Shown here piece by piece: positions 2,815 through 44,899 of a DNA stretch of 64,000 bases (the first letter of the stretch is position 1; each line of letters begins with the position of its first letter). Under the pieces are notes generated by a model. The model saw only the letters and a program-made list of their open reading frames with translations. It was not told the origin of the DNA and did no database searches. The position numbers and the translations under genes were made by a program. The stretch is from the NCBI RefSeq assembly GCF_055900595.2, contig NZ_CM148325.1. One strand, 5' to 3'.

Positions 2815-3429
2815 TTATCCTTCGATAAAAGCCATCCCTGTAAACGTCCGTCGCGGGTTGCCACGTTCAATCTGGTGATGGAACATTCGCCGCTGCGATT
2901 TCAGCGCCGCGCTATTTTCCTGTTGCTGTTGCTCCAGCTTCCAGGCAATCAGCAATCGCGCCAGCCGTTTGTTGGCATGTTGGCTGCGCTCTGACTGAAC
3001 CTTCACGCTAATCCCGGATGCCAGATGCGTGGCGCGTACCGCCGAGTCGGTTTTATTGACATGTTGACCGCCCGGCCCCGACGAACGCAGCGTCTCATAA
3101 TGGATCGCATCGGATTGCTCCTGCTCATCTGCAGTAAAACGCCCAATGCCCAGAAACCAGTTTTTGCGCCCATGATGAGGGCGATACGGACTCGGACAAA
3201 TCCACTGGATAGTGCCACACCAGCTTTCGCTTAGTGCCCATGCGTTGTCGCCATCAAGTGAAACCAGCGCCGAACGCAGTGTGTCAGAGTAGCGACCCGT
3301 TTCTGTTTCCAGCACCGTTACCGCGACGTCTTGTCGGGCAGCTTCTTTAATCAGCCTGTCCAGTGCCTTTTTCACTGCGAGACAACATTCTTCCGGCCCC
3401 TGAGCTGAGGAGAGTTGTAGCAAGATCAT
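2815..3429 (-). CDS. prfH: Peptide chain release factor homolog PrfH (full-length form)
   Basis: ORF contains a release-factor domain with the GGQ motif ([16 protein letters not shown]); likely start at the internal Met ([14 protein letters not shown]...) giving ~204 aa; start overlaps the rtcB stop. Confidence 0.85.
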
Positions 3430-4565
3430 CCTTTTTTCCCTCCACTGTTTTTGAGCGTCAGCACCGGACGCAGTCGCGCGACAGGAATAATTAAACCGGC
3501 CTGCACCAGACATTGCACCACACTTTCAGCCGATTTATAGGCTTGTGGCGCTTCTTCAAAGATGAGTTGTTTATCGCGACAAATTACCCGACTGCCAAGT
3601 TCAGTACGTGAGAGTTGCGTCGCCGTGTATTTCGCTGCCAGACGCCCTTTACACTCGGTGCGCCCCCATTTACGCCCTGCCCCATGCGCCAGTGAGTGAA
3701 GCGTTTTTTCGTTCGCAACAGGTTTAACCAGCCAGGAGTAATCACCGCGTGAACCGGGAATAATCACCAGACCGTTGTCATCCGGCGTAGCCCCTTTACG
3801 GTGTAACCATCCTTGTTGATCGCCGATTCGACATGCGCTAACAAAGTTATGCGCCACATCCAGAACCGAATTTCCGTTGGCCTTAACTTGTTGCATTATG
3901 CGCAAAGCGATCAGCTGGCGATTAATACGCGCAAACGCCAGCGCATCATCATGTTCCGCAATATAACTTAGCGCGTCGTCACTGCCTTCCGGCAAACCAT
4001 GATGCGAAAACGAGGCAATATGCCGCTGTAAAATAGACTGCCCTAAACCACGCGAGCCGCTATGGACCAGCAGTTGCAGATGCTGCGCATCCAGACCTGA
4101 CAGTGCAAACAGTTCCGCGTCGATGATTTGATCAATCTGTTGCAGTTCTGCAAAGTGGTTACCGCCACCGATAGAGCCAAGCGCGCAGCGCCACGGATGC
4201 TGTGCAAACGCTGACGGCAGGTTTTCCTCCAGCCAGCTTTCTTCAGCAACGTCATCCAGCGCAGATAATCGCTTTTCAAACTTATCGGCGTTGTATTTAC
4301 GCGCGAGAATATCTGTTTGCCATAGCGCCATACCGCAGCCGATATCATTGCCGACCAGTGCCGGGTAAAAACGGCCTACGGAGAAGAACGCTGCGCCAAT
4401 CGGATAGCCGCGTCCGGGGTGCAAATCTGGCATCCCCACTACGCGCTGCATGTTGGGTAAATTTGCCGTGGTGTGTAATTGTTGGATCGCTGAACTCTCG
4501 ATCCACAGGTCATCAGATGCGATGGTAAATACCGCATCGGATAAGGGACGAATATATTTGCCCAT
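3426..4565 (-). CDS. rtcB: RtcB-family RNA ligase (RtcB2-type, paired with prfH)
   Basis: 379-aa [26 protein letters not shown]...[17 protein letters not shown]... recognised as RtcB family; translationally coupled to prfH. Confidence 0.85.
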
Positions 4566-4810: not shown

Positions 4811-5263
4811 TTAATGTTGCGGTTTATATCGCATATGAAAATTAGTAAACCACGCTCCCCGGCATTCAACGCGTTGCTGCTTAACTGTCTGAAAACCATA
4901 ACGTTCAAAAAAGGGTTTTGCGGTTATGCTGGCGTCCACCGTAAGTTCGGATTCAGACTTAATCAAAGGTTTTAACAAAGCGCTGGCAACCCCACGGCGA
5001 GTATATTCAGGGTCAACAAATAACATATCGATATAATGTTCAATGCGGGAAATAAAACCAACCGGTTGTGCATTAATCACAGCAACTCGCACTTGTGATT
5101 TCGCGAGTTGCTCTTTCCAGCGAGATTCGTCAATCTGCGCCCAGGCGGCAATTTGTTGTGGTGAATAATGCTGACTGGCGGTCATCGTAACCGCTCTAAT
5201 GAAAATAGCGCATAGTTGCTGAAAATCGCAAGGCTGATAGTTTCTTATTTGTATGTTATTCAT
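4811..5263 (-). CDS. yafP: GNAT family N-acetyltransferase YafP
   Basis: 150-aa ORF recognised as YafP; start overlaps dinB stop (operon). Confidence 0.9.
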
Positions 5264-6315
5264 AATCCCAGCACCAGTTGTCTTTCCATTTGCGGATCCA
5301 GCAACGTCACATGCAGCCCCACCAGCCGCACACCGCGCCCGCCACGGCGTTCATCCCAGGTTTTACGCGCAGTGGCGATCAAGTCAGCTTTATTCAGCCG
5401 CGGCCAGACGTGTTCCTGGGTGGTTTGCTGAAAATCGTCGAACTTTAATTTCACCCCCTGGCGGGCAATCAGTAAATCAGGTTTTACCTTTGCCAGACGA
5501 CGTTCAAGTTCCGGGTACAACCGCTCGATGATCGCTTCACATTCAGACCAGTGATGAATATCTTCCGCCATGGTGCGTTCTACACCGACGGATTTTCGCA
5601 ACCTTTCGCTGTTAACGTCGCGCTCGTCAATGCCCTGGCTACGCTCCCACAAAATGCGGCCAAATTTGCCAAAGCGTTTAAGCAACGTCACCAGATCACA
5701 CTTTTGTACATCGCCACAGGTTCGTAGCCCCATCGCTTCCAGTTTTGCCGCCGAGACTTTGCCGACACCGGGAATTTTTGCCAGCGGTAAGGTTTGCAGA
5801 AATGCCGGAACTTCTGCCGGCGTAATCACAAACTGACCGTTGGGTTTATTCATGTCTGAGGCGATTTTGGCGAGAAACTTGACCGGCGCAACGCCCGCAG
5901 ACGCCGTCAGTTGCAGCTCGTTGAAGATCGTCTGGCGGATTTCCTGAGCGATAAGGGTCGCAGAGCCGTGGCAATGGACACTATCGGTGACGTCGAGATA
6001 GGCTTCATCCAGTGACAGCGGCTCAATACGCGATGTGTAGCGAGAGAAGATTTCGCGGATATGATTTGACGCTTCTTTGTAGGCGTCAAAGCGCCCTGGA
6101 AGCAAGGTGAGATGCGGACACAGTTTGAGCGCCATGCCGGTTGGCATTGCGCTACGCACGCCAAATTTACGCGCGGGATAATTGGCGGTGCTGATCACCC
6201 CCCGGCGTTCGCGGCTGCCGCCAATAGCAATAGGGATATCGCGCAGGGCGGGATTGTCGCGCATCTCCACCGCGGCGAAAAAGCAGTCCATATCCACATG
6301 AATGATTTTACGCAT
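5260..6315 (-). CDS. dinB: DNA polymerase IV (Y-family translesion polymerase)
   Basis: 351-aa [36 protein letters not shown]... recognised as DinB. Confidence 0.95.
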
Positions 6316-6385
6316 TGCTCACCTCTCAATACTGGTAAAGTATACAGTGATTTCAGAGTTTGAGAAAAGCGTAAAGATTCAGCAT

Positions 6386-7120
6386 TTAACGCGTTCGCTG
6401 CGAAAGCACCTGCTGCTTATCCAGCTTTTTCACCAGCGGCTGCACCACCTTATCCCCATGCTGACCAAAATATTGATACAACGTATCGGACGCGCTTTTG
6501 GTGAGCACCATAATCTCAATGCGCCGGTTACCCGCGCTTTGTGGGTTTTTGGCATCCAGCAGCATCTGGTCCGCCATCGCGCTTACCTGCATCACTTTAT
6601 CTTCCGGCATCCCGGCGTCTTCCAGCACCCGACGGGCCGAGAGCGCGCGGTCACCCGAAAGGTTCCAGTTGTTGTAGATATTGCTTTTATAGGCCATCGC
6701 ATCGGTATGCCCGGTAATAATAATTTTGTTGTCGAGCGAGTCGAATACCGGCGCGAGTTCCACCAGCAGCGTTTTAAAGAACGGCATAATCTTCGCGCTG
6801 CCGCGTTCAAACATATTGCGGTTCTGGTCATCTTTAATCAGCACGCGTAATCCCTGCGGGACAATCTCCATCTCCAGATTGGCTTCCATATGCGCATCGC
6901 GGGCGATGGTGTTGATACTGGTCGCCAGCTCGCCAAGCTCAGTGGCAGACTTCTTCTTCACTAGCGCCGTTTTCTCGTTGACGTCGCGGGCTTTTTTCTC
7001 CGTCTCTTCCGGCACCGCCACGGTGGCAGGTTTCGGCGGATGCGTCGGGCTGATTTTATTTAACGGCGACAGCCCGCCGCCATTGAAAATCGACTGCCCG
7101 TGCAGCGCGGCGATAATGCT
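6386..7120 (-). pseudogene. lafU: MotB-like lateral flagellar motor protein LafU, 5'-truncated remnant
   Basis: ORF has a MotB/OmpA-like C-terminal peptidoglycan-binding region but lacks the N-terminal transmembrane segment; the ORF-track N-terminus is antisense read-through into lfhA'; boundary approximate. Confidence 0.7.
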
Positions 7121-7139
7121 TTCACGCTCAGATTTACTA

Positions 7140-8855
7140 ACACTGTTGACAATCAACTTTATTGTCGTCACCAAAGGGGCCGAGCGTATTTCCGAGGTTT
7201 CTGCCCGTTTTACCCTGGACGCGATGCCCGGCAAGCAGATGGCGATTGACGCCGATCTTAACGCCGGGTTGATCAACCAGGCGCAGGCGCAGACCCGCCG
7301 CAAAGATGTTGCCAGCGAGGCCGATTTCTACGGCGCGATGGACGGGGCATCGAAGTTTGTGCGCGGGGATGCCATCGCCGGGATGATGATTCTGGCGATC
7401 AACCTGATTGGCGGCGTTTGTATCGGGATCTTCAAATACAACCTGAGCGCCGATGCCGCCTTCCAGCAGTATGTGCTGATGACCATCGGTGACGGCCTGG
7501 TGGCGCAGATCCCTTCCCTGCTGCTCTCCACCGCGGCGGCGATTATCGTCACCCGCGTCAGCGACAACGGCGATATCGCCCATGATGTGCGCCACCAGCT
7601 GCTGGCAAGCCCGTCGGTGCTCTACACCGCCACCGGGATTATGTTCGTGCTGGCGGTGGTGCCGGGAATGCCGCACTTCCCGTTCCTGATGTTCAGCGCC
7701 TTGCTTGGCTTTACCGGCTGGCGAATGAGCAAACGCCCGCAGGCGGCGGAGGCGGAAGAGAAAAGCCTCGAAACGCTGACCCGCACAATCACTGAAACCA
7801 GCGAGCAACAGGTCAGTTGGGAAACCATTCCGCTGATCGAGCCCATCAGTTTAAGCCTCGGTTACAAACTGGTGGCGCTGGTGGATAAAGCGCAGGGCAA
7901 CCCGCTCACCCAGCGTATTCGCGGCGTGCGGCAGGTGATTTCCGACGGCAACGGCGTGCTGCTGCCGGAGATCCGCATTCGCGAAAACTTCCGCCTCAAG
8001 CCCAGTCAGTACGCCATTTTCATCAACGGCATTAAGGCCGATGAAGCGGATATTCCGGCGGATAAGCTGATGGCTCTGCCCTCCAGTGAAACCTACGGTG
8101 AGATTGACGGCGTGCTGGGGAACGACCCGGCGTACGGGATGCCGGTGACCTGGATCCAGCCTGCGCAGAAAGCGAAGGCGCTGAATATGGGGTATCAGGT
8201 GATCGACAGCGCCAGCGTAATTGCCACGCATGTGAATAAGATTGTGCGCAGCTATATTCCTGATTTGTTTAACTATGACGATATTACTCAGCTGCATAAC
8301 CGTTTGTCGTCGATGGCACCGCGCCTGGCGGAGGATTTGAGTGCGGCGCTGAATTACAGCCAGTTGCTGAAAGTGTACCGGGCACTGCTGACCGAAGGCG
8401 TTTCCCTGCGCGATATCGTCACCATCGCCACCGTGCTGGTCGCCAGTAGCACCGTCACCAAAGATCATATTCTGCTGGCGGCCGATGTGCGCCTGGCACT
8501 GCGGCGCAGCATTACCCATCCGTTCGTTCGCAAGCAGGAGCTGGCGGTGTATACGCTGAATAATGAACTGGAAAATCTGCTGACCAACGTGGTGAATCAG
8601 GCGCAACAGGGCGGCAAAGTGATGCTTGATAGCGTGCCAGTGGACCCGAATATGCTCAACCAGTTCCAGAGTACGATGCCGCAGGTAAAAGAGCAGATGA
8701 AAGCGGCGGGGAAAGACCCGGTGCTGCTGGTGCCGCCGCAGCTGCGCCCGTTGCTGGCGCGTTATGCGAAGTTGTTTGCGCCGGGGTTGCATGTGCTGTC
8801 GTATAACGAAGTGCCGGATGAGCTGGAGTTGAAGATAATGGGGGCGTTGATGTAG
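7140..8855 (+). pseudogene. lfhA: FlhA-like lateral flagellar export protein LfhA, N-terminally truncated remnant
   Basis: FlhA homology begins mid-protein at NFIVVTKGAERISEVSARFTLDAMPGKQMAIDADLNAG (about nt 7146); upstream part of the 709-aa ORF is not FlhA-like; boundary approximate. Confidence 0.75.
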
Positions 8856-8856
8856 G

Positions 8857-10990
<2,134 letters not shown>

Positions 10991-11099
10991 AAGGGATGAA
11001 ACAACAGCGCCTGACGGCGCTGTGTCTGGCATGCCTGCAATCCGGGAGACTGGACCAGGAAAAAACTTGCAGGCCGTAACAGTATCTACTGTTAAAGCA

Positions 11100-11247
<148 letters not shown>

Positions 11248-11809: not shown

Positions 11810-11921
11810 GGGAAAGCGGCTCGCAAAATATTCGCAGACTCGTAGGCATGATAAGACGCGCCAGCGTCGCATCAGGCATCGGCGCATAACCGCCGGATGC
11901 GGCGTACACGCCTTATCCGCC
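11810..11921. repeat. REP/BIME array
   Basis: gtaggcatgataagacgcgccagcgtcgcatcaggcatcggcgcat...gccggatgcggcgtacacgccttatcc. Confidence 0.75.
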
Positions 11922-12680
11922 CTACAAAATCGTCTCTTCTGTCAAAATCCTGCGCGCGCCCAAAAAGTGATCCTGCCAGAAAGGTTCAGCTAACCGACTT
12001 ACCCGAATGGTTTCCCCGGTGCGCGGCGACTCGATAAACTGACCGTCTCCCAGATACACGCCCATATGGTCGGCAATCTCGCGGCTGTGAATATGGAAAA
12101 ACAGCAAATCTCCCCGGCGCAGGTCGTTATTTGCCACAATGGTTGCCCGACGGTAGTGATACATCTCATTGGCCGTGCGCGGGAGTTTCGCCTCGAGGAT
12201 CTTGTTGTAGGCATAAAAAACCAACCCGCTACAGTCGAAGCCTTGATCGGGTCGCGTGCCACCCCAGACGTATGGCTTGCCAAGCTGCTGCTCCAGACGG
12301 TGAATCGCCACTTCGGTGATATTATGCAGGTGGTTACTGCTGAGGAAATGATTGTTTTCCGCCAGCGCCTGCCAGCGTCTGTCACTCGCCTTGAGCGGCG
12401 CAGGAAACCATTCTGGATGCTGTTTTATCTGTTCGCGGTTGTGTTGCCGCAGTGCCCTTCTGCTTTCAGCATTGCCTTCCACAATATAGCTGGCCTGCTT
12501 TTTCAGATGAATTTGGTACTGTTTTAATAAACGCGCACGGTTTTGCATCCGCTGGCGGGCGGCGTAGCTGAAAGAGATATGTGATGTGGTGGCGCTGGCG
12601 AGTAAAGGGAGCAAAACGCATAACGAAAACACGCCTGGATGCAGAAATCTGCCGAGCAAGAACGAAGACATGAAGGACAT
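11922..12680 (-). CDS. yafL: NlpC/P60-family lipoprotein peptidase YafL
   Basis: 252-aa ORF with signal peptide and NlpC/P60-type motif (GFDCSGLVFYAY). Confidence 0.85.
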   Translation of the reverse strand: MSFMSSFLLGRFLHPGVFSLCVLLPLLASATTSHISFSYAARQRMQNRARLLKQYQIHLKKQASYIVEGNAESRRALRQHNREQIKQHPEWFPAPLKASDRRWQALAENNHFLSSNHLHNITEVAIHRLEQQLGKPYVWGGTRPDQGFDCSGLVFYAYNKILEAKLPRTANEMYHYRRATIVANNDLRRGDLLFFHIHSREIADHMGVYLGDGQFIESPRTGETIRVSRLAEPFWQDHFLGARRILTEETIL

Positions 12681-12971
12681 AAACCGGCTGAATGAAGGTG
12701 AGAATTTTAAAAGACCGGAGGAGTAAACGGGATTATTAATTGCTTATTTGCATATTACTATTGAGGTTTCATAATCTTAGGAAATAAATGATACATGCGC
12801 TTTTCGGACTAATGAAAACTGCCCTTGTGCTAAATTTGTAAACCCTGCGCCGACAGGCTTGCGTAAAACTCTTTTGGTGATAATGTGAGCCTTCCAAATC
12901 CAGACTATTCCGATTTGGGATCCATTTTGCCGTCCTGGCGTGTGTAACCGTTTTATCAAGGAATAAGCAGT

Positions 12972-14499: not shown

Positions 14500-14650
14500 T
14501 TAAGAATTTTCAGGTCGGATGCGGCGTGAACGCATTATTCGGCCTACGGTTCGGGTACAGATTTGTAGGCATGATAAGACGCATCAGCGTCGCATCAGGC
14601 ATCAGCGCACAAGTGCCGGATGCGGCGTAAACGCCTTATCCAGCCTACGC
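14500..14650. repeat. REP/BIME array
   Basis: Repeated gtcggatgcggcg...cgccttatcc / gtaggcatgataagacgc units. Confidence 0.75.
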
Positions 14651-20653: not shown

Positions 20654-21268
20654 TCATATATCCGTAAGTGATTTAAAATCAGCAACACGGGCAAATTCCT
20701 TTTTCGGTAGTACCAAAGACTCTAGTCGTGCTGATAGCAGTTCAACCATAAACTCTGCCCACCCTAAGTCAAATTCATCACAAAGAGGTCCACGACTTTC
20801 ATTTATAACTATTTTCCAATTACAATTTTTTTCTAATTTCCAGAATAAAACCTCTCCACTATCAGTTATACCAAACGGGAGAACACCATCTTCCGATGGA
20901 AAAAAATTGTATGGGAATTTTTCGCCATGAAGTTTGACCTCAGCAAGAGCCGAATTTATTTCCTTTGCTTGCTCGATTAAATTAATATATGGATTATCAA
21001 CAAACGGGCTAAAGATCCAAAGGAACCCATTTATTCGTCCTATCCCATATTCATCAATAAAGGATTTATAATCTTCTGGCAACAAAATACCTAGCCTAGA
21101 CTCTGCTTTCCGCCAGTCATTGACGCCATTATAATCGTCAATAAGGTTTTTATAATCATTAGACAATTGAATACCGAGTTCAGATTCTAACCGTCCCCAA
21201 TAAGTAGTTATTTTCTCATTAATAACTGCTGGTGGCGGAATTATTTTCTTTATCATATCAATAGACAT
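20654..21268 (-). CDS. SMI1/KNR4 (SUKH-type) family protein, candidate Rhs immunity protein
   Basis: 204-aa ORF with features remembered for SMI1/KNR4 immunity proteins; located downstream of the Rhs C-terminal toxin. Confidence 0.6.
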   Translation of the reverse strand: MSIDMIKKIIPPPAVINEKITTYWGRLESELGIQLSNDYKNLIDDYNGVNDWRKAESRLGILLPEDYKSFIDEYGIGRINGFLWIFSPFVDNPYINLIEQAKEINSALAEVKLHGEKFPYNFFPSEDGVLPFGITDSGEVLFWKLEKNCNWKIVINESRGPLCDEFDLGWAEFMVELLSARLESLVLPKKEFARVADFKSLTDI

Positions 21269-21313
21269 TGTCAGTTCCCTATTGGATTCAGTATAGAATC
21301 ATTAAGCACAGTT

Positions 21314-21511
21314 TCAATTTTCATAATCCAGAATTGGCTCATCTAATGCTTCTGAATAACGAAGAAGATTCTCTCGCAAATCTTCAAGGGATTCACCTCG
21401 CGGAGACACTGGTTTTTCACTATATCCACAAACCTTACCTGCTTCATTATAATATACCTCATAGATAGCAAGCTCCCCTTTAAATTGCATAACTCTATAA
21501 TTCCAAGTCAT
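21314..21511 (-). CDS. Small hypothetical protein immediately downstream of the Rhs toxin; candidate cognate immunity protein
   Basis: 65-aa ORF starting 9 nt after the Rhs stop; position typical of an Rhs immunity gene; weak HicB-like look. Confidence 0.45.
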   Translation of the reverse strand: MTWNYRVMQFKGELAIYEVYYNEAGKVCGYSEKPVSPRGESLEDLRENLLRYSEALDEPILDYEN

Positions 21512-21519
21512 ATCTCCTC

Positions 21520-22383
21520 CTATTTTTTATGATAATCAACAATATCATGAATAATTATTTCATTTTCTGTTTCAGAATATAAAACTCTATCTCCCCCTCT
21601 TCCTTTACCACTTCCTGGTAAGTCGGCTGCTGATTTCCCTTTTAAATCACCATGTAAAGAATGCTGGTTTTTTCCTGACTCACCACGAGAAAGCATAATT
21701 TTAATAGCATCATAGGCTTCAGCTTGTTTTCCTTTGAGCGCATCCCCCTTCTTCGCCGCCAAATCCTCCTCTATGATGGTTTTCATTTGGGTAGGACATT
21801 TTTCACCTGCCAGCCCCCACGGGTCGCACCAACCCACCGGATTATGCACATAAGACTGCGTATCCAGCCCGCCGCTCAGTTTCAGCGGATCCTGGCTTAA
21901 ATACTGCCCCGTCCCGGCGTCGTAGTAGCGGTGTAAATTATACCACAGCCCGCTCTCCTCATCCTGCCACTGGCCCATGAAGCCCGCATCGCAGCTTTCA
22001 CGCTCACTGTCCGGCGAGTCGTTTGCAGCCAGCCCCCACAGGCTGCGGTGTTTCGTCCACACCTTCCGCCCGTTCGCGCAGTACATCTCCTGCGGCGCGC
22101 CGTCCGGGCCGGTCACTACCGGGTAAAAATAACTTCTGTCATCATTCGCCGCCCGGCTTTCCTTCGCCAGCAGTTCAAATCTGCCCCCGGTAGTGCCACT
22201 GCTCCCGTAGCGCCGGGCTGCCGTCTGCATAGCGTTTCTCACTTGTGGAAAGCGCCATCCCAAGCCACTGGTAGCGTACTTCGCTGATGGCGTGCGGGCT
22301 TCGTTTCCACGCTGCCCGGATAACGCAGCGTTTTGCCGTTCGTCTGCCAAAGGCGTCGTAGCTGTACTGCCACACTTCACCAT
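21520..22383 (-). CDS. rhs: Rhs C-terminal segment: end of Rhs core (DPxGL motif) plus YoeB/RelE-like toxin domain; out of frame with the upstream Rhs ORF
   Basis: Contains GLWYNLHRYYDAGTGQYLSQDPLKLSGGLDTQSYVHNPVGWCDPWGL (Rhs core end) followed by ~95 aa ending ...GKGRGGDRVLYSETENEIIIHDIVDYHKK resembling YoeB/RelE toxins; overlaps the main Rhs ORF in another frame over 22175-22383. Confidence 0.7.
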   Translation of the reverse strand: MVKCGSTATTPLADERQNAALSGQRGNEARTPSAKYATSGLGWRFPQVRNAMQTAARRYGSSGTTGGRFELLAKESRAANDDRSYFYPVVTGPDGAPQEMYCANGRKVWTKHRSLWGLAANDSPDSERESCDAGFMGQWQDEESGLWYNLHRYYDAGTGQYLSQDPLKLSGGLDTQSYVHNPVGWCDPWGLAGEKCPTQMKTIIEEDLAAKKGDALKGKQAEAYDAIKIMLSRGESGKNQHSLHGDLKGKSAADLPGSGKGRGGDRVLYSETENEIIIHDIVDYHKK

Positions 22384-25300
22384 CTGGTGTCTTTATCTCG
22401 CGCAGACGGTCGAAGTCATCCCAGCGGTAGCGCCACTCCTGCGGGCGAAAGCCGAGTTTTTGGTCGGTGCGCTTTGTCACCCTGCCGCAGGCGTCGTATC
22501 CGTAGCGGCTGTCACCGGCCTGGTTCACACATTCATTATTGTACTGGTGCTGCGACAGAATACCGTTTATCCGGCTTTCCGCTATCTGCTCATTGACCGT
22601 ATAGCGGTAGCGCTCTTCCTGTGCCGGACCACTGGCGTCCAGCCGCAGTACGCTGGTTATCTGGTCGCGGGCATCGTACTGGTAGCGCGTTTCCCGCTCC
22701 GTACGCGTTTTCGACCACACTTCATGCCCGGTCAGGCGGCCCGATTTATCCCACGCGTAACGGTGTTCGCCCAGCGGTCGCCACGATGCCACGCTCTGGT
22801 GGCTGCCTGCCAGCCGCTCTGCGCCCTGTTTTTGCCATGCCGTACGTCCGCAGGTGTCGTATCCCTGCTCCTGCATATAGACCGCATGGTTCAGCGGCGT
22901 CTGCGCCAGCCAGCTTTCCTCATCCTCCGGGCGGTAACGCCGATTTTTTTCAAGGCCCGCGGGGGAATGACTGAAGTCCATCCGGTGACCGTTGCTGCGG
23001 TAGCCCGTCAGAATGCCCGAAGCGTCGTATTCTCTCTGTGTTTCCCCGTCCGGCGTTGTGGTGCCAGTCAGCCTTCCGGCTTCGTCGTAACGGTACTCCG
23101 TGCGCTGGCCGTCCTGCTCTTCCGCCACCAGACGATGGCGTTCGTCCCACTCCAGTTTTACCTCACTGGTGAGCGTATAGCCTGCTTCACTGCCGTCGCT
23201 GCGCTCATACACCTGCGCACTCACCATCCGGTCATGGCGGTCGTACTGATAGCTGAGTTTCTGATGCTCGCCGCTGATGGTCGCCACCCGGCCATATTCA
23301 TCCCTCGCATAGCGCCATACGCTGCCGTCCGGGCGGTGTTTTTCTGCCAGCCGGCCCTGTTCATCACGGATATAGACGGTTCTGCGTCCCGACCAGTCCT
23401 CCTCCCCGGCCATCTGGCCCGCCGCATCGTAGTACAGCCGCCACTGCTGGTTGCCGCTGCGCGTAAGCTGCGTGAGCCTTGCGGCACCATCGTAGTCGCA
23501 AAGTATCCGCTGCCCGCCCGCGTCCTCCACTTCCCGCAGCAGGTCAAATGCCCCGTGGCGGTAGCGCGTGGTCTGGCCCATGGCCCCGGTGTGGAGAGTG
23601 ATTTTGCCTTCACCATCATAGCGGAAGGTTTCAGCGCCACCGTCGGCCCGGATTACTGCGCTCAGTTTCTCATGCGGGTTATCGGCACCGGGGCGGTACT
23701 GCCAGTTCACGCTGCGCCCTTCAGCATCCACCAGCCCCGTCAGCCGCAGCCAGCGGTCTTCCGTGTAATGGGTTGTGCGGCCTTCACCATCGGTATGGGA
23801 AAGCAGGCCACCGTGAGCGCTGTAGCTCCACTGTTCGTGGCTGCCGTCCGGGTACTGTATCTCCTTGAGCAGACCGTCTTCGGTATGACGGTACTGCCAG
23901 TTCTGCCCGTTCACCTCCCGGCGGATAAGATTCCCTTCGGCGTTATAATGGTACGCCGCCGTGGTGCGGTGGTCCTGGTATGCCGTAACCTGACCAAATT
24001 CATCCCACTGCCATTCACGTTTACGCCCGTTCTCGTCCGTTTCGCTCAGGATACGCCCGGCATAATCGCGTTTTATCTGAGTAATGCGCCCACCCGGCTG
24101 GCGAATACACAGCGGCTGGTCGTATTCGTTACGCTCCCATTCAGTGATACGCCCCAGCGGGTCACGCTGTTTTTTCAGCAGCCAGGACTCATCGAACCAC
24201 AGCGTGGTGGTGGCTCCGGTGGCATCGGTGTAATCGGTTCTGCGCTCCTCCGGGAAGTAGCGGAAGGTGTCGTTATACAGGCCTTCCTGTGTGCCTGTGG
24301 CAGTCACCCGGCCTTCATCGTCATAGCGCAGGTGGAAGTGCGTCGGGCCGTTGTCGCGCCAGGAACTCAGCCAGCCCTGTTCGGTATAGGTATAATGCAA
24401 CGCGCCATTAAAGCGGGTCTGCACATCGCTCAGTCGCTGTTCATCGCCGTGACTGATATAGTCATAGCGCACCAGCTCGCTGCCGTCTGACTCGTCGATC
24501 ACACGGAATATCTGCCCCTGCGGGCCACACATCACCCGCAGATTCAGGCCGCTGCTGTGGGTTACGTTTGTCAGTTGGCCGATGACGTTATAGGTGAAGC
24601 GAATTTCGTTGCGGTTGCGGTCTTTTATTGCCGTTAGCCGCAGGCGGCGTGCGCCGGGGGAGATGGGCGTAAAGATATAACCCAATTGTGAGTATTCGTC
24701 GAAGATAATAGCCCGCTCACGGTTTCCCAGGAGGCGATAGTGCGGGACAAGCAGGTTACGGCTACTGTATGGTGCCTGCTCCGTGGAGTAGGCCAGACAT
24801 AGCCCCTCAGCATCAAAGTAGGTGACGTTTTTCCCGTTGCAATCGAACTCCAGAAACTGCGACCAGTTACACAACCAGCGACTGCCCAGCAAACCACTAA
24901 CCGGATGTCGGCCTGTATAAGCACGTTTCAGCGTCAGCGGTAAAATATGCGGATAGTTGAAATCAGTTCGGTAATCCAGATATTCACCCGTTCCGGTATC
25001 CACCGGATCGCTGAACCCCTGACTGATACGCTCATTTGCGGCTCTGTTTAACTGCTTTGCTCCCCATAGAGCTGTTAACACTTCCAGACTTGATACAACA
25101 GATTGCTCCAGCACCGTCATATCGGCATTAATCGGCCCATACTGTCCGGTCGTCTTATCAGCCGTAATGGTTTTACATCCTTCCTGAATAACTGCCGAGC
25201 AGGTAATTTTATGGCCCTTACGCGCCAGCGGCAGGCTGTTGACGGAAATAATTTTGCTCCCTTCCACTATCTGTGGAGGAGGACTGCCCGGATCCTTACT

Positions 25301-25942
25301 ACATTCAACCGGATCAGTGACGCGAGCTACCGCTTTTCCTTCAAAAAAAACATTAGGAGAGCCTTCTACAATCTGTCCGGTTTCAGATGCCCAGCGGGAA
25401 CCAATTACCATCGCTGCGCCACCGACAAATCCACCAGCTAATCCCCCGGCCCCGGCAGCAACGGTGGCAGCCAGCACACCCAATGCCGCGCCCCCTGTAG
25501 CGACAACCAGAGCTCCCACTGCAATCCCTACAATAAGTCCACCGATTAACCCACCAATAGCACCCAGAAAGGAATTGTTATGAACAATGTGATGACCCAC
25601 ACACGCAGGTATATCTGTTGGGCCGGAAACTGCGTGATCTTTACCCCAGGTATCCATGAACCAGTCACCTGCTTTGGTGCCCAGCCATCCCCCCAGCATC
25701 CCGCCAACCAGTCCGGCAATCAAAGGGCCTCCAAATCCTGCAACAGCTTTGGCTATTCCGGCTGCACAGGTGTTTGCTGCTGCGGCTGCCAGTCCTACCT
25801 TTGCCGTTGCTCCCACCATACTGACAGCCATTATTCCAGTACTGGCAATATGTCCTGTGGTAGCAATACTCTCCACTGTTTCGGCATTACTGTCCCGTTG
25901 ATCCAGCTCCGCTAACTTCTCCTGCGCGCTTTTTTCCGTCAT
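22175..25942 (-). CDS. rhs: prePAAR-TMD-PAAR-Rhs T6SS effector, main ORF (YD-repeat shell)
   Basis: 1255-aa ORF: N-terminal region with Gly-rich transmembrane helices and PAAR-like segment (GSPNVFFEGKAVARVTDPVEC), then many YD repeats; stop at 22175 where another frame continues. Confidence 0.8.
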   Translation of the reverse strand: MTEKSAQEKLAELDQRDSNAETVESIATTGHIASTGIMAVSMVGATAKVGLAAAAANTCAAGIAKAVAGFGGPLIAGLVGGMLGGWLGTKAGDWFMDTWGKDHAVSGPTDIPACVGHHIVHNNSFLGAIGGLIGGLIVGIAVGALVVATGGAALGVLAATVAAGAGGLAGGFVGGAAMVIGSRWASETGQIVEGSPNVFFEGKAVARVTDPVECSKDPGSPPPQIVEGSKIISVNSLPLARKGHKITCSAVIQEGCKTITADKTTGQYGPINADMTVLEQSVVSSLEVLTALWGAKQLNRAANERISQGFSDPVDTGTGEYLDYRTDFNYPHILPLTLKRAYTGRHPVSGLLGSRWLCNWSQFLEFDCNGKNVTYFDAEGLCLAYSTEQAPYSSRNLLVPHYRLLGNRERAIIFDEYSQLGYIFTPISPGARRLRLTAIKDRNRNEIRFTYNVIGQLTNVTHSSGLNLRVMCGPQGQIFRVIDESDGSELVRYDYISHGDEQRLSDVQTRFNGALHYTYTEQGWLSSWRDNGPTHFHLRYDDEGRVTATGTQEGLYNDTFRYFPEERRTDYTDATGATTTLWFDESWLLKKQRDPLGRITEWERNEYDQPLCIRQPGGRITQIKRDYAGRILSETDENGRKREWQWDEFGQVTAYQDHRTTAAYHYNAEGNLIRREVNGQNWQYRHTEDGLLKEIQYPDGSHEQWSYSAHGGLLSHTDGEGRTTHYTEDRWLRLTGLVDAEGRSVNWQYRPGADNPHEKLSAVIRADGGAETFRYDGEGKITLHTGAMGQTTRYRHGAFDLLREVEDAGGQRILCDYDGAARLTQLTRSGNQQWRLYYDAAGQMAGEEDWSGRRTVYIRDEQGRLAEKHRPDGSVWRYARDEYGRVATISGEHQKLSYQYDRHDRMVSAQVYERSDGSEAGYTLTSEVKLEWDERHRLVAEEQDGQRTEYRYDEAGRLTGTTTPDGETQREYDASGILTGYRSNGHRMDFSHSPAGLEKNRRYRPEDEESWLAQTPLNHAVYMQEQGYDTCGRTAWQKQGAERLAGSHQSVASWRPLGEHRYAWDKSGRLTGHEVWSKTRTERETRYQYDARDQITSVLRLDASGPAQEERYRYTVNEQIAESRINGILSQHQYNNECVNQAGDSRYGYDACGRVTKRTDQKLGFRPQEWRYRWDDFDRLREIKTPDGEVWQYSYDAFGRRTAKRCVIRAAWKRSPHAISEVRYQWLGMALSTSEKRYADGSPALREQWHYRGQI

Positions 25943-25972
25943 CTGTTCGTCCTTCCCGCTGAACTGGCTGGG

Positions 25973-26404
25973 TTATTTATCCTGTGGCATTCCAAAACAA
26001 AAATTCAATAATGCTCCCCGCATCGCTTTACGATCCTCCTCTGCCAGCGCCTGCGTTGAGGAATAGGTCAGCGTCAGTACTTGTCGCTCGTTCAGGATTA
26101 CCAGCAGCAACTGCTGTATCATCACCCCCTTGTTATCCCAGCTAAATTCCCAGTATTCCGCCGGGCGCTCCTGCACATGACAGCGTTCTTCTACGGTGAA
26201 CACCATTTTCGACAGTTCGGTACGGAATTTCTTTTTCTGCACCGCCAGATAGTCATCAAACTGCGCGCCTTCCGGCAATATTTCACGAGTGACAACTACA
26301 TTTGCTCCGGCAACCGCACTTAGTACTGGCGTCAGAATATTCATACTGCTGTCCTGCCAGTTTCCCGGCAGAGTGAAATGCCCTTCATTAATGAGATATT
26401 GCAT
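25973..26404 (-). CDS. eagR: DUF1795-family Eag chaperone for PAAR-Rhs effector
   Basis: 143-aa ORF between vgrG and the PAAR-Rhs gene, the canonical position and size of Eag chaperones. Confidence 0.7.
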   Translation of the reverse strand: MQYLINEGHFTLPGNWQDSSMNILTPVLSAVAGANVVVTREILPEGAQFDDYLAVQKKKFRTELSKMVFTVEERCHVQERPAEYWEFSWDNKGVMIQQLLLVILNERQVLTLTYSSTQALAEEDRKAMRGALLNFCFGMPQDK

Positions 26405-26436
26405 TGTTATTTTTCCCTGAAAATTAATGAAATGGA

Positions 26437-28656
26437 TTACTGTGGATTTAGCGCCAGATGGGTGGGTCCATCGAGGGTGATAGTGCCGTCTGAATTCATA
26501 ACAAGAGTGCTTTTTCCGACAGTCAACTTTATCTGCGTTGCTGCGGTAAGGTGTATCGCCCCGGTTTTTGACGTGATGGTGATATTCCCTTCTACCGTCT
26601 CCGTGCAGGTTCCCGTTTCTACCGTCACCTCGCGTTTACCCGTTTTCACCGTCAGAGACTGGTCGCCTTCCGTTACGGTAATATTCCGGTTGCCTTTGAT
26701 GGTTTCGGTATGCTTACCATCAACAAATTCCGTGCGGTCGATTTTTACCGTGGATGTTTCGTTATGAATGATGGTTTTCGTCCGATCTGCCTTTACCGTG
26801 TGTGTTTCGTTATTTTTCACGACGGTATTCAGATCTTTCTCCGCAAGAAACCTCACTTCTTCCGCCCCCGTTTTATCGTCAAAGCGCAGCATGTTTCCGT
26901 TGGTCGCCCCCCCCTGTAACGAGTGGCTGAATATCCCGCTCTGCGACGCCATGCCCGGTAGCCCCCACGGCGGCATGGTGTCCTGGTTGTAGGTGCGCCC
27001 CACGATAATCGGTAGATCCGGGTCGCCATTTTTGAAATCCACCAGCACTTCCTGGCCGATGCGCGGGATCTGGATCATGCCGAATCCTTTACCCGCCCAC
27101 GGATAGCTGACGCGGATCCAGCAGGAGCTGTTTTCGTCATTATTACCGTAACGATCCCAGCCAAACTGCACCTTCACCCGGCCATATTTATCCGTCCAGA
27201 TTTCCTGCCCTACCGGGCCGGTGACGATGGCGCTCTGCGGGCCTTTGGTGTGGGGTTTGCTCAGGGTTCGTTGTGGGCGGTAAACTTCGCGGGTGGGATG
27301 CAGTTCAAACGTGGTGACATAGGTAAAATGCTGATCCTGGCCGCTGTGCTGCGCGTTGTCCCGTAAAAACAGCGTGGTTTGTACCAACAGATATTCCTGA
27401 TTAATTTCTGCCGTCGGGTGATTCATCAACGTAAAGGTGTACCCGGTCATGAGGGTACGGATATGACCGGCCCCATGTGCCCGGCTGCCGGGGCTGCGCT
27501 GCGCTTCCATACGAATGCGCGTCAGCATCTCACCTTCGCCCGTAGTGAAGTAATCACCAGGCCATTCATAATGCTCATATTCAGCATGACCGGTATTACG
27601 CGGACTAGCCACGGTACTTTTAAGCAGCGAACGAGGCTTCATAAAATCAAAATCGTCCATCACCCACTTTCCAGTACGCAGTCTCTCACTGGCCGTAATG
27701 GTGTGGATAAATTCTTTGTCCAGTTTCAGCCCTTCCTGGTGCCACTCCACCAGTGGCGAGTCAGGGCACGCTTTATGACCATTGATGGCATCCGTCAGCA
27801 CCAGCGTATGGCAGTTCTCGCTGTGCTCAAACCACCAGTAGATTCCCCACTCCTGCATCAGGCGCTGGATGAAATCGAAGTCGGTTTCACCATACTGCAC
27901 CTGCCAGACGCGGGGTGGATAATTTTCCACCAGCCGCTTTTCCACCGGAAAGGAATATTCATCCAGTACTTCATCGAGAATATCCACCACGGTTTTGTTC
28001 TGGAACGCTTTGTAGTCGCTGGTATGGGTCAGCAGCTTCAGCCATGGCTCAATGCGTAATTCATACGTTACCGAACGGCCCTCATGGCCGACCACCCTCG
28101 CCGCCGTCACCAGCCCGCTGATATACCGTTTTCCGCCACCGTCCAGTTCGATACTGACGCACAGGTCTTTGCCTACCATGGGCTGAAGCGGCAGGTTGGC
28201 CGCGGGGGAAACGTATCCCAGGTTCAGGGCGTCCGGCGTTTTAAGCTGTACTGTGTAGGAAAACAGATTCCCAAGCCCTTCCGAACCATTCATGCCTGCG
28301 AACAGCAGCATCTGCGGCGGCACCGAACCACCACTTACTGTGACGTTATGCGCCCCCGGACCACCGGCTGCAAGCGACGCCGCCGCATCCTGAACTGCAC
28401 CAGCCATATCCGATATCCCTGCTGCTGCGGCGGCGGCTTGCGCAGCGGCTACTGCGGCTTTAACCAGACCTGACGGTTCCGGCAACGCACCAAACAGGTC
28501 CGCCACTGCCTGTTCTGCCATCTGCTCGGCGGCATCAGCTACATCGGTTGCGGCTGAACCTGTGCTCATACTGCCACTTTCGCCAGCTATTGGTGGTGTG
28601 GTGATGACGGGTCCACCGTTTCCAACTGGTTTATTACCCGTAGATACAAAACTCAT
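26437..28656 (-). CDS. vgrG: T6SS spike protein VgrG (TssI) with ~110-aa Ala/Gly-rich N-terminal extension
   Basis: 739-aa ORF with gp27/gp5-like regions (e.g. [15 protein letters not shown]) and C-terminal beta-helix repeats; canonical VgrG N-terminus begins after residue ~110. Confidence 0.9.
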
Positions 28657-28680
28657 GATATTTGCTCCTTTAATACCGGA

Positions 28681-29067
28681 TTAAAATCTAGCCCCTGGTG
28701 GCCAAAAAATATAAGTAATCACTCTCCATTGCCCGTCTTTATAATGAAACCAACATGTCAGATTCAAATCCCCCTGCAAATTCCAGAACATTTCCTTAAT
28801 AGGAACATTTTGAAATTCAGGATCTGTTATGCGATAAGTTTGATTCAAGCCGATATAATACTCACCAACAAATTTATATCGTGGCCTCACGAACTCATGA
28901 GCAGGCGGCCCATATTTCTTCATAAAAAAGATGTCATTACTTCCATCATGTATATCATTTTCTTCATAATATTTGGTGGATTGAGCAACTGCAGAAGGCG
29001 AGAAAACATTCACTGTAGTTATGTAAGTTATTGAAAGGAAAATCACTATAATACAGAAAAATTTCAT
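28681..29067 (-). CDS. Putative periplasmic immunity protein for the adjacent HExxH effector
   Basis: 128-aa ORF with N-terminal signal-like hydrophobic segment; overlaps effector stop; C-terminal half conserved with the paralog at 30776-31147 (PIKEMFW..GDLNLTC.FHYKDGQWRVI.Y.FWPPGA.F). Confidence 0.6.
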   Translation of the reverse strand: MKFFCIIVIFLSITYITTVNVFSPSAVAQSTKYYEENDIHDGSNDIFFMKKYGPPAHEFVRPRYKFVGEYYIGLNQTYRITDPEFQNVPIKEMFWNLQGDLNLTCWFHYKDGQWRVITYIFWPPGARF

Positions 29068-29765
29068 TTGGTTACATTCAATAAAGTAAATTTAGTTTCA
29101 GGCATTATGACATTCAACGTTATAGTTGCGTTTTTAAGGTATCGTTCCCGAAGCTCCATTCCCACATTCATCAACCCACTAATATCTCCAACATACGGAG
29201 ACGAAGAATCATAATCATCATCTAAGTAACCAAGTACATGTCCGGCTTCATGAGGTATATTTACTTGCAACGTATTATTACAGTTAATACATTTCGCTAC
29301 TTTTTCCAGGTCCGCTGAATCAACATGAACCGTACTGTTTTTAAAATCAACATATGTTCTTAAATCAGCACCAGGCAAAACCTTTGTTGCAATAACCAAC
29401 CAGTCTTCATTCTGAGATGCAGAAATTATTCTTACATCAAAAGGCAAAGCTTTACCCTGAAATTTTTTAGCGAACTCAGATTCACCGGAAACAGAATAAG
29501 TTATTTTCCCATTCCATGCCTGCTGAACAGATAAATATATCGCTCGCATAAAAATAGCTTTTTCCCATATAATCCAGTCATCTGTAACGGTATTATCTTT
29601 ATACCACTCATACTTCCATCTTATCACAGCCGTAATCGAACCAGTATTTTGATTTAATAAATACGTCCTCCTACCATCCTTATGTATAATGATATCGCCA
29701 TCAATATTTGTTTTTTCATAGTATTCGGCCAGCAAACTATTCTCATCATATTTAAGCTTGGTCAT
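29064..29765 (-). CDS. Putative T6SS effector with HExxH zinc-metallopeptidase-like motif
   Basis: 233-aa ORF, no signal peptide, contains NIPHEAGHVLGY; followed by overlapping signal-peptide ORF; sits between vgrG copies. Confidence 0.6.
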   Translation of the reverse strand: MTKLKYDENSLLAEYYEKTNIDGDIIIHKDGRRTYLLNQNTGSITAVIRWKYEWYKDNTVTDDWIIWEKAIFMRAIYLSVQQAWNGKITYSVSGESEFAKKFQGKALPFDVRIISASQNEDWLVIATKVLPGADLRTYVDFKNSTVHVDSADLEKVAKCINCNNTLQVNIPHEAGHVLGYLDDDYDSSSPYVGDISGLMNVGMELRERYLKNATITLNVIMPETKFTLLNVTK

Positions 29766-29831
29766 TTTACTCTCATTAAATACTAATTGTTTGTATCGAA
29801 AATATTATCTGGAAAAATATTATTTTATATA

Positions 29832-30751
29832 TTACGAGTATTGCCCCTTCAGCCGCAGCGCATCCACATACCGTCCTTCACTGCAGGGCAAGATTACGAA
29901 AGCCCGCCCCGCAAGGACTGACGCGAGGTAGTTTCTGTCCATGGCTGCTTTTATCATCTTACGTCTTAACCCTGCCTTGGTTTCGCCGTACTGCACCTGC
30001 CAGGCGCGGGGTGGATAATTTTCCACCAGCCGCTTTTCCACCGGAAAGGAATATTCATCCAGTACTTCATCGAGAATATCCACCACGGTTTTGTTCTGGA
30101 ACGCTTTGTAGTCGCTGGTATGGGTCAGCAGCTTCAGCCATGGCTCAATGCGTAATTCATACGTTACCGAACGGCCCTCATGGCCGACCACCCTCGCCGC
30201 CGTCACCAGCCCGCTGATATACCGTTTTCCGCCACCGTCCAGTTCGATACTGACGCACAGGTCTTTGCCTACCATGGGCTGAAGCGGCAGGTTGGCGGCG
30301 AGGGAGACATATCCGAGGTTCAGGGTGTCCGGGGTTTTAAGCTGTACTATGTAGGAAAACAGGTTTCCAAGCCCTTCCGAACCATTCATGCCTGCAAACA
30401 AAAGCAGCTGCGGCGGCACCGCACTACCACTTACTGTGACGTTATGCCCCCCGGACCACCGGCAGCAAGCGACGCCGCCGCATCCTGAACTGCACCAGCC
30501 ATATCCGAGATCCCTGCTGCGGCGGCTGCGGCTTGCGCAGCAGCTACTGCGGCTTTAACCAGACCTGACGGTTCCGGCAACGCACCAAACAGGTCCGCCG
30601 CGGCCTGTTCTGCCATCTGCTCGGCTGCATCAGCTACATCGGTTGCGGCTGAACTGGCGCTTACAGCACTACTTTCTCCGGCTATCGGTGGCGTGGAGAT
30701 AGCTGGCCCACCGTTACTGCCAGATTTATTACCCGTAGATACAAAACTCAT
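29832..30751 (-). pseudogene. vgrG: Truncated, frameshifted vgrG duplicate fused to H-repeat and tagF 3' remnants
   Basis: Two ORFs (30431-30751 and 29832-30419) match the first ~270 aa of the full vgrG; frame broken at a C-run near 30445-30455; 3' end reads ...[24 protein letters not shown] (H-repeat protein C-terminus) then ...[10 protein letters not shown] (tagF C-terminus). Confidence 0.75.
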
Positions 30752-30775
30752 GATATTTATTCCTTTAATATCGGA

Positions 30776-31147
30776 TTAAAATTTTGCGCCCGGCGGCCAG
30801 AAAAAATAAGAAATAACCCGCCACTGTCCATCTTTATAATGAAAAAAACATGTCAGATTTAAATCCCCCCGCAAATGCCAAAACATTTCTTTGATGGGGA
30901 TATTTCTGAATTCAGGATTCGTTGAGCGATAGACATTTTCAATCTCTATATAATACTCACCGACTAATTTATAACGAGGCTTTATAAATTCATACGCTGG
31001 CTGACCATAGTTATTTAATAGAACATTCTCTTCAACTCCATTATACACACCACTCGCATTCAGATAAGCATACCCAGGAATATCAGACATGCTATTTTTC
31101 GCCCCACCCACTATCAAAAAAATAATCACAGCGTATATTAGTTTCAT
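30776..31147 (-). CDS. Putative periplasmic immunity protein (paralog of 28681-29067)
   Basis: 123-aa ORF with N-terminal hydrophobic signal-like segment; C-terminal half conserved with the other immunity paralog. Confidence 0.6.
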   Translation of the reverse strand: MKLIYAVIIFLIVGGAKNSMSDIPGYAYLNASGVYNGVEENVLLNNYGQPAYEFIKPRYKLVGEYYIEIENVYRSTNPEFRNIPIKEMFWHLRGDLNLTCFFHYKDGQWRVISYFFWPPGAKF

Positions 31148-31160
31148 TTTTTTACGCTTT

Positions 31161-31882
31161 TCACAAAAAATTAGAACCCGGAACCATTCTATTTAACCGC
31201 TCAATGACATTTCCCATATAACGAGAGCGCAGTTCCATACCAATATTCATTAACGCACTGGCATCCCCGGAGAATGGTGTAGTTGCTTTATCTGCATCAT
31301 CACTATAGTATTCATCGGTAAGATATCCAATAATATGCCCAAGCTCATGAGACAGCCCCATTTGCTTAGAGCAAACTTTTGATGAACCAAGACATTTAGC
31401 TGCTGCAACTATATCTTTAGAGTCAAGTTCAACGTATCGACTATTCCAGACAATGGAACTCTGACGAAAACTATTTGGATCATCATTATCAATTTTAAAC
31501 ACCACCACATCCCAATACCCATGACGATCAGTCTGAATTATTTCTATTGTGAAAGATAAATCCTTACCATTAAACTTACTGACAAACTCAGACTTCCCAG
31601 AAACGGATAAAAAAACCTTATTATTCCATGTTTGATTAATGACAAAAATAACTTTTCCATGAAAGGCTTTTTTTCCATATCTGTCCAATCAGTTTTTGCA
31701 TCCCATCTTTTTATCCAATTATATTTCCATCTCAGCAACAATGAGATTGCACCATTTTCACGGTCAATTCTTAAATCTCCCCAGGCATCATTGTCCCTGA
31801 TATATCGTTTATCCAGCATTAAGTCGTCATAAGCATCGTATGCCTGCTGAATAGCCTCATCATGAGAGTCACCCATGTTCAC
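31161..31882 (-). pseudogene. HExxH-motif putative effector, paralog of 29064-29765, apparently frameshifted
   Basis: Two overlapping ORFs (31544-31882 N-terminal part, 31161-31688 C-terminal part with HELGHIIGY and LMNIGMELRSRY); frame break near a T/A homopolymer at ~31660-31690. Confidence 0.6.
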
Positions 31883-32068
31883 CTCCTTATATTGCTATAT
31901 ATCCAATAAACCTGAAGATGCTTGCTTACCCACCAACGCAGACGGGACCAAGGGTAGCCTGAAGTCAACAGATAGCAATCAACTTGAAGTTCATGGGGAT
32001 ATTTGTTTCCCCATCTACACGTTTATCGTCATATTTTTGTATAGCTATTCTCAGCATTCGTGGGTAGA

Positions 32069-32190
32069 TTATTTTTTTTCCAACCGCAGCGCATCCACAT
32101 ACCGCCCCTCGCTGTTCTGCTGCCACAACCAGCCCAGCCCCTGCTGCGCCTGCGTTAACATTTTTGCTAGCCAGCACGGTCACGGCAGGC
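32069..32190. repeat. Remnant of tagF 3' end
   Basis: Minus-strand reading gives [26 protein letters not shown], matching the C-terminus of the intact TagF at 33163-33260 ([31 protein letters not shown]). Confidence 0.75.
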
Positions 32191-32206
32191 AATTCTATGA
32201 CAGGTA

Positions 32207-32680
32207 CTACTCATCCGTACAACCCAGCCCCCGGCGCTGAACCACTTCACTGGCAAACGTAGCTCCGGTTTTTTTCATTATTCCTTTTTGTATTTTTTGC
32301 AGCGCGGGAAATGAGATTCTCCTGCATGAATCCTCTTCCCATATATCACCAGTTACAGGGCTAACTGAAAATAGTCCCCACACATCTGTCGCTCCGGCGG
32401 AAGGAGAATCATAACCTACCCCAAAACTAAAATACCCAGGATGATACAGGTTACCTTTTTTATCTTTCAGAGAACCGTCAAGAAAAAACCCAGACAATTC
32501 CACATTATATTTTTCATTTTTTAGTGAAAAAACCAATAATGCCTGCGCCTGTATTTCAGTAAGACCTGACTGGTTAACAGTCGTTAGATCAAACCGCGGC
32601 ACATTCCTGATAAGAATTTCAGCACAACAATTCACGGACACGACCATGAAAAGCAATACTGATATTAATTTACAGGACAT
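32207..32680 (-). CDS. Putative periplasmic immunity protein for the adjacent GH73-like effector
   Basis: 157-aa ORF with signal-like N-terminus MSCKLISVLLFMVVSVNCCA; overlaps effector stop. Confidence 0.5.
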   Translation of the reverse strand: MSCKLISVLLFMVVSVNCCAEILIRNVPRFDLTTVNQSGLTEIQAQALLVFSLKNEKYNVELSGFFLDGSLKDKKGNLYHPGYFSFGVGYDSPSAGATDVWGLFSVSPVTGDIWEEDSCRRISFPALQKIQKGIMKKTGATFASEVVQRRGLGCTDE

Positions 32681-33135: not shown

Positions 33136-33162
33136 GATTCACTACTCCTTGTCTGATTATTT

Positions 33163-38083: not shown

Positions 38084-38091
38084 GAAGACTC

Positions 38092-41428: not shown

Positions 41429-41431
41429 AAT

Positions 41432-41965: not shown

Positions 41966-42032
41966 TGTAATTTCCTTTAAAATCAAATGATAAAAACCGG
42001 CCTGGCTATTTGCCGGGCCGGAAAAGTACCGC

Positions 42033-44268: not shown

Positions 44269-44292
44269 GAAAGTTCCTTAATAAAATCGCAG

Positions 44293-44838: not shown

Positions 44839-44899
44839 AATCCTTCATTTCCTTATCAGTGAGCCGACGACCACCAGGGGAGCGGTTCGACGGTACAGT

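Follow-up and report, generated by a model that had tools for sequence, protein, structure and literature searches.

A dinB-yafP operon without yafNO and the direction of change at its junction within Escherichia

Introduction

In Escherichia coli K-12 the gene for DNA polymerase IV opens a four-gene SOS operon, dinB-yafN-yafO-yafP (b0231-b0234), in which a toxin-antitoxin pair stands between the polymerase and an acetyltransferase. In the stretch of DNA analyzed here (64,000 nucleotides of contig NZ_CM148325.1, assembly GCF_055900595.2; hereafter the window), dinB runs directly into yafP. The locus raises the question of whether the toxin-antitoxin genes were lost from such an operon or were never part of it. 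The two-gene arrangement itself is already known, having been published in 2011: it was found in 40-50% of strains, always with an ATGA overlap, and CFT073 was chosen as a model for its two-gene, naturally yafNO-free form (Gutierrez et al. 2011, NAR 39:4192, PMC3105422). The arrangement is an ordinary one and will not surprise a specialist. The same authors took the four-gene operon to be ancestral and inferred at least three independent losses, with the four-gene operon of E. fergusonii as the sole support for the parsimony argument (PMC3105422), whereas a later review describes dinB-yafP as an undisturbed bicistronic operon into which yafNO was inserted (Fraikin et al. 2020, PMC7167474). Because these two papers disagree on the direction of change, we examined it here, and the outgroup and divergence evidence on that direction is the only new part of what follows.

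The dinB-yafP junction

The operon consists of two open reading frames on the minus strand (Table 1). The product of the first is 99.7% identical to K-12 DinB at the protein level and scores 547 bits against the NCBIfam equivalog model NF002677 (cut-off 256), and that of the second is 96% identical to K-12 YafP and scores 322 bits against the equivalog NF007338 (cut-off 146). Direct reading of the sequence gives TCAT on the plus strand at 5260-5263, and hence ATGA on the minus strand. The original prediction, which had placed an overlap of the dinB stop and the yafP start within positions 5240-5280, is thus borne out at the coordinates given.

Table 1. Features of the window discussed in the text. 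Positions are those of the window; minus-strand motifs are read on that strand.
Feature	Position	Strand	Description
prfH	2815..3432	-	peptide chain release factor H, intact; TIGR03072, 328 bits; overlaps rtcB
rtcB-family RNA ligase	3426..4565	-	379 aa, intact; NF007153, 642 bits; directly downstream of yafP
yafP	4811..5263	-	GNAT-family N-acetyltransferase, 150 aa; second and last gene of the operon (ORF call)
ATGA stop/start overlap	5260..5263	-	yafP ATG at 5263..5261, dinB TGA at 5262..5260
ATTATGA (7 bp)	5266..5260	-	one copy left; flanks yafNO in four-gene strains
dinB	5260..6315	-	DNA polymerase IV, 351 aa; first gene of the operon (ORF call)
dinB Shine-Dalgarno, GAGAGGTGAG	6319..6328	-	strong; duplex with 16S 3' end, -11.9 kcal/mol
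LexA (SOS) box core, CTGTATACTTTACCAG	6332..6347	-	same as in the K-12 dinB upstream region
Promoter-like site	6366..6339		predicted -10 hexamer of the dinB promoter overlaps the LexA box
lfhA'/lafU Flag-2 scar	6316..8910		94.5% nucleotide identity to K-12
IS-related region	8911..11085		from the lfhA remnant to rayT
isrC sRNA	10387..10509	-	full-length Rfam match, 145 bits
naRNA4 (three)	11110..11181, 11845..11922, 14568..14645		REP-derived; Rfam matches
dinJ-yafQ site	12608..12831		between dpaA/yafK and yafL; 224 bp
Type VI secretion cluster	~20869..54542		complete; beside tRNA-Asp
tRNA-Asp	54675..54751	-

When the window is aligned with the K-12 dinB operon, the check that the original prediction had proposed, the result is a clean difference of 759 bp, which falls exactly at the junction and is the sole structural difference between the two sequences. 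The MG1655 record confirms the gene order on which the prediction relied, and the 759 bp found only there comprise the 51-bp dinB-yafN spacer, yafN, yafO and the 9-bp yafO-yafP spacer. The heptamer ATTATGA stands at both ends of this extra segment in K-12, and the window retains one copy. With K-12 YafN and YafO as tblastn queries, the best matches anywhere in the 64-kb window had E values of 1.5 and 4.4, respectively, so that neither protein is encoded there; blastn with the 755-bp yafNO cassette gave a best E value of 0.48 over the same 64 kb, indicating that no cassette DNA is present. Nor did tblastn or word-7 blastn detect remnants of yafN or yafO at the junction or elsewhere in the window, and the junction itself is seamless. 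Both genes that define this type II toxin-antitoxin system, the toxin gene yafO and the adjacent antitoxin gene yafN, are accordingly lacking from the window, and the claim that the YafO mRNase and its antitoxin are missing from the SOS operon stands for the locus and for the 64 kb around it. That the dinB stop is joined to the yafP start and that yafNO is missing is a structural fact rather than a statistical signal, and chance is therefore not at issue.

The chromosomal position of the operon is that of K-12, with the lafU'/lfhA' scar upstream and prfH/pepD downstream, and the two loci have the LexA box core as well as the two nearly identical proteins in common. K-12 alone has the additional 759 bp encoding the YafN antitoxin and the ribosome-dependent mRNA interferase YafO, bounded by the duplicated ATTATGA; its yafP is separated from yafO by a 9-nt spacer and has no overlap with dinB, in contrast to yafP of the window. 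The two-gene operon of CFT073 and UTI89 (PMC3105422, PMC7167474) has the same two genes with the same ATGA overlap, likewise lacks yafNO and has a LexA-controlled dinB promoter as well; the window differs from that type in that its dinB belongs to a rare, deep-branching sequence class, although the protein is nearly unchanged. By every defining feature that can be judged from sequence, the window contains the published two-gene dinB-yafP operon.

Regulation and translation of the two-gene operon

The 105 bp upstream of dinB are near-identical to those of K-12, the LexA box core included. A promoter and terminator scan of positions 4400-6600 gave counts no higher than those for shuffled sequence, and from it we use only the overlap of the predicted -10 hexamer with the LexA box; the scan found no terminator between dinB and yafP. 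An Rfam scan of positions 1-16000 gave no match at or near the dinB-yafP junction, its hits being limited to isrC and the three naRNA4 matches farther upstream (Table 1). The best Shine-Dalgarno-like site upstream of yafP is a weak GGUG, 9-12 nt upstream, with a predicted duplex energy of -5.6 kcal/mol, and K-12 yafP is essentially without such a site (-0.9 kcal/mol). Overlapping stop and start codons of the form AUGA are classically associated with termination-reinitiation coupling.

These features suggest how the operon may be expressed. DNA damage or entry into stationary phase would derepress the LexA-repressed dinB-yafP operon and yield one bicistronic mRNA, from which Pol IV would be translated by way of its strong Shine-Dalgarno sequence. 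As the site before yafP is only weak, YafP synthesis probably depends on ribosomes that finish dinB at its UGA and begin again at the AUG overlapping it. Such coupling would tie YafP to Pol IV and would keep the amount of YafP below that of Pol IV, and the cell would be provided with a Pol IV/YafP pair without an SOS-linked YafO mRNA interferase. In the two-gene operon of CFT073, expression of a YafP-YFP fusion rises on treatment with mitomycin C and in stationary phase, and the authors of that work described YafP synthesis at the overlap as 'frameshifting' (Gutierrez et al. 2011, PMC3105422). For the strain of the window, we infer from the conserved sequence both SOS-inducible co-transcription and synthesis of YafP from the overlapping start. 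A strain of this type, with an SOS response that includes Pol IV and YafP and lacks the YafO mRNA interferase, is a natural yafNO-free background.

Distribution of the two arrangements in E. coli

The complete E. coli genomes compared numbered 5,426. A 240-bp query with the junction at its center was matched over its full length in 2,569 of them, and yafNO DNA (K-12 query) was found in 2,847, with a median of one copy per genome. Together the two classes comprise 5,416 genomes, as many as carry dinB-yafP at all; at the DNA level, two-gene strains therefore almost never keep yafNO elsewhere. E. coli thus splits almost cleanly into two-gene and four-gene classes, with a handful of intermediates such as MEI003, in which part of yafN is left between dinB and yafP (H45, H110). 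As about half of E. coli is two-gene, the K-12 arrangement is not a suitable reference for the dinB operon. The practical consequences are small.

These counts also bear on two rival readings of the junction. It could have been produced by a collapse in the assembly or by a miscalled open reading frame; both reading frames, however, are full length and score above their equivalog cut-offs, and the same seamless junction recurs in the 2,569 complete genomes, eight of which are 99.9% identical to the window across the locus. This recurrence rules out an assembly artefact; nothing was found in favor of the explanation, and we give it practically no credence. Alternatively, yafNO or a functional equivalent of the YafO family might be located on a plasmid or in a part of the chromosome beyond the 64 kb that are visible here. 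Klebsiella plasmids often carry distant members of the YafO toxin family (32-37% identity), yafO is found on a few plasmids of E. coli, and 8 of the 2,861 places at which yafNO occurs in E. coli genomes are on plasmids. Since the junction and yafNO classes together account for the 5,416 genomes with dinB-yafP, and yafNO has a median of one copy per genome, such a relocation is very improbable.

Insertion or loss of yafNO

To call yafNO missing, as the original prediction did, is to take K-12 as the reference. We also looked at the arrangement in relatives of E. coli. Outgroup context was obtained by a protein search with YafP followed by look-ups of the contigs; a contig search by exactly matching YafP peptide patterns returned four Escherichia loci and one unrelated planctomycete GNAT protein. 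Escherichia marmotae has dinB-yafP without yafNO and with an ATGA overlap identical to that of the window, followed by rtcB-prfH and then pepD. In Citrobacter amalonaticus, dinB ends in TAA and is followed by a 5-nt spacer and the yafP ATG, and in Kluyvera the spacer after the TAA is 2 nt; neither has yafNO, and in both dinB-yafP lies directly upstream of pepD-gpt-frsA. All three thus resemble the window in having dinB followed by yafP, no toxin-antitoxin cassette and the pepD-gpt-frsA neighborhood, whereas Citrobacter and Kluyvera differ from it in having a spacer where Escherichia has an overlap and in a YafP that is only 56-58% identical. Within the genus, Escherichia sp. MOD1-EC7003 shares the two-gene junction of the window, and among the genomes sampled E. 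whittamii and SCPM-O-B-8794 are four-gene. Together with E. fergusonii (PMC3105422), these place four-gene operons in several Escherichia species, so that any insertion must be old or must have crossed between species.

The cassette is also younger than its surroundings. Across seven four-gene operons, mean dS is 0.21 for dinB and 0.165 for yafP, as against 0.089 for yafN and 0.042 for yafO, which puts synonymous divergence in the cassette 2-5 times below that of its flanks. K-12 and E. whittamii differ at 15 positions in the 755 bp of the cassette and at 95 in 1,509 bp of flanking sequence (Fisher p = 2e-6). The GC content of the cassette (41.9%) is well below that of dinB (54.2%), but that of yafP is low as well (43%), so that the cassette does not stand out by its base composition. 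The 752-bp unit brings its own spacer, with inverted repeats and a good Shine-Dalgarno sequence for yafN, and through the 7-bp duplication that bounds it dinB regains its stop and yafP its start. Such a duplication is what a target-site duplication would produce.

The two-gene outgroups, the youth of the cassette and its duplication-bounded form lead us to conclude that the two-gene operon is most likely the ancestral enterobacterial state and that the four-gene operon of K-12 was derived from it by insertion. The evidence supports the 'insertion' of the 2020 review against the 'repeated loss' of 2011. In the sequence of events that we propose, a cassette with its own operator region, bounded by duplicated ATTATGA, would have entered the dinB/yafP junction within Escherichia and would later have spread by recombination. 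A similar situation has been described for relA-mazEF-mazG of K-12, where a type II toxin-antitoxin cassette likewise lies between two otherwise adjacent cistrons and is present in some strains while the bicistronic operon is undisturbed in others; this is another locus with other toxin and antitoxin families, and it is compared here from the review alone (PMC7167474).

The contrary account is secondary loss, as in the scenario of Gutierrez et al. (PMC3105422): the ancestor of this lineage was four-gene, and the 759 bp were precisely deleted between the copies of ATTATGA/ATGA by replication slippage or short-homology recombination, which joined the dinB stop to the yafP start, the same deletion recurring independently in several E. 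coli lineages. A route for precise deletion exists, as the 7-bp direct repeats are kept in all seven four-gene operons examined, and other products of decay are found (the microhomology deletion in E1V33, the premature stop in SCPM-O-B-8794 and the partial deletion in MEI003, all described below). Closely related alleles also fall on both sides of the divide: the yafP genes of LTC201 (two-gene) and EC67 (four-gene) share 99.6% identity, O145:H28 (two-gene) and K-12 are 98.5-98.7% identical near the junction, and no SNP parts all two-gene from all four-gene alleles. Shared haplotypes of this kind are, however, equally explained by recombination that moved the cassette in. The two-gene state of E. 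marmotae and of the outgroups beyond the genus means that four genes are not the deep ancestral state, and the cassette dS of 0.04-0.09 is far below the divergence of the window's allele class from any four-gene allele (about 6% at the nucleotide level, nearly all of it synonymous), a class in which no four-gene member was seen among 5,426 genomes. We regard secondary loss as a serious possibility whose chance falls somewhat short of even.

The direction proposed in 2011 may have to be reversed altogether, in favor of a single insertion that was moved between lineages and species by homologous recombination and that never reached the allele class of the window; for this full version we consider the chances to be evenly balanced. 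If it is true, a toxin-antitoxin cassette that has no recombinase of its own and yet is bounded by a repeat resembling a target-site duplication would itself be worth explaining. The side result, made up of the two-gene outgroups and of a cassette younger than its flanks, contributes modestly to the question of how toxin-antitoxin cassettes of the chromosome become established within operons.

Several operons carry a decayed form of the cassette. In Escherichia sp. E1V33 (L005, 3967..4003), yafN is kept and yafO is reduced by a 379-bp deletion at a TTAT microhomology to a 10-codon remnant, the TGA of which overlaps the yafP ATG. In E. coli SCPM-O-B-8794 (L006, ~3940..3950) a premature TAA stands at codon 119 of yafO (K119*), and E. 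coli MEI003 (H45) carries the partial deletion mentioned above. The survival of an antitoxin gene whose toxin partner is gone suggests that, of the two, the toxin gene is usually the first to be lost.

History of the dinB allele

Whether the lineage of the window itself ever carried the cassette depends on the history of its allele. The dinB gene of the window is 93.7% identical to that of K-12 at the nucleotide level, with 62 synonymous and 1 non-synonymous codon differences, and 95.5% identical to that of the B2 strain E2348/69; its allele class is about 94% identical to (about 6% diverged from) nearly all other E. coli. Over dinB-yafP, only 32 of 5,424 records reach 95% identity to the window. 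All 22 of those at 95.5% or above are two-gene, and the few four-gene records lie right at the 95% boundary. Because the cassette coalesces much more recently than the alleles split, and because the class has no four-gene member among the 5,426 genomes, retention is favored: on balance, we lean slightly towards the view that the lineage of the window kept the ancestral state and never carried the cassette.

Two further possibilities were considered and set aside. For introgression of the dinB allele from a cryptic Escherichia clade no donor was identified, as the identity of the allele to K-12 and to the four other Escherichia genomes sampled (L005-L008) is much the same (92.7-93.7%). A diagnostic SNP near the junction, common to all two-gene alleles and pointing to a single origin, was also sought among 18-19 loci, a small sample chosen by similarity ranking, and none separated two-gene from four-gene alleles; given recombination, this lack does not separate recurrent deletion from import of the cassette. 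In the same small and non-random sample, divergence over the final 100 bp of dinB is 4.1% for two-gene and 2.0% for four-gene alleles, a weak trend. Across E. coli, dinB and yafP fall into several deep allele classes with up to 7% divergence.

Taken as a whole, the reading of the locus as a two-gene allele of the CFT073/UTI89 type, with SOS-controlled bicistronic expression, coupled synthesis of YafP and an ancestral arrangement into which the cassette was inserted within Escherichia, is one that we hold with high confidence.

Surroundings of the operon

The closest complete genome is Z0117EC0005 (NZ_CP098223.1), with 99.8-99.98% identity over the shared parts. Divergence from K-12 varies along the window: pepD-gpt-frsA and fadE-dpaA are about 96.9% identical to K-12 and are thus closer to it than dinB (93.7% over 5263..6315) and the adjacent Flag-2 scar. 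The K-12 scar region aligns to the window without gaps, which indicates that the same Flag-2 deletion scar is present in both. Directly downstream of the operon, the rtcB-family gene and prfH are intact, whereas their K-12 counterparts are the pseudogene fragments ykfJ and prfH.

A second toxin-antitoxin pair of K-12, dinJ-yafQ, is also absent. At its site, 830 bp of K-12 (yafQ, dinJ and the promoter region) are replaced by the 224 bp listed in Table 1, and tblastn detected no match to DinJ or YafQ in the 64-kb window. This strain is therefore without either of the mRNA-interferase modules found in K-12 within about 8 kb of dinB. As dinJ-yafQ DNA is found in 3,340 of 5,426 complete E. coli genomes, its absence is likewise a common polymorphism.

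Farther from the operon, ARAGORN called a 94-nt 'tRNA-His' at 52276..52369 on the plus strand, inside tssF; its length and location suggest a false positive. The type VI secretion cluster that contains this gene encodes TssM, TssL, TssK, TssC, ClpV/TssH, TssF, TssG, TssA, VgrG and a PAAR-Rhs effector protein. Z0117EC0005, otherwise 99.9% identical, lacks some 32.9 kb of the cluster (20869..53798) and has only a truncated ImpA/TssA fragment left at that site, and in the same genome the IS-related region beyond the lfhA remnant is annotated with fragments of IS3-family and IS110 elements.
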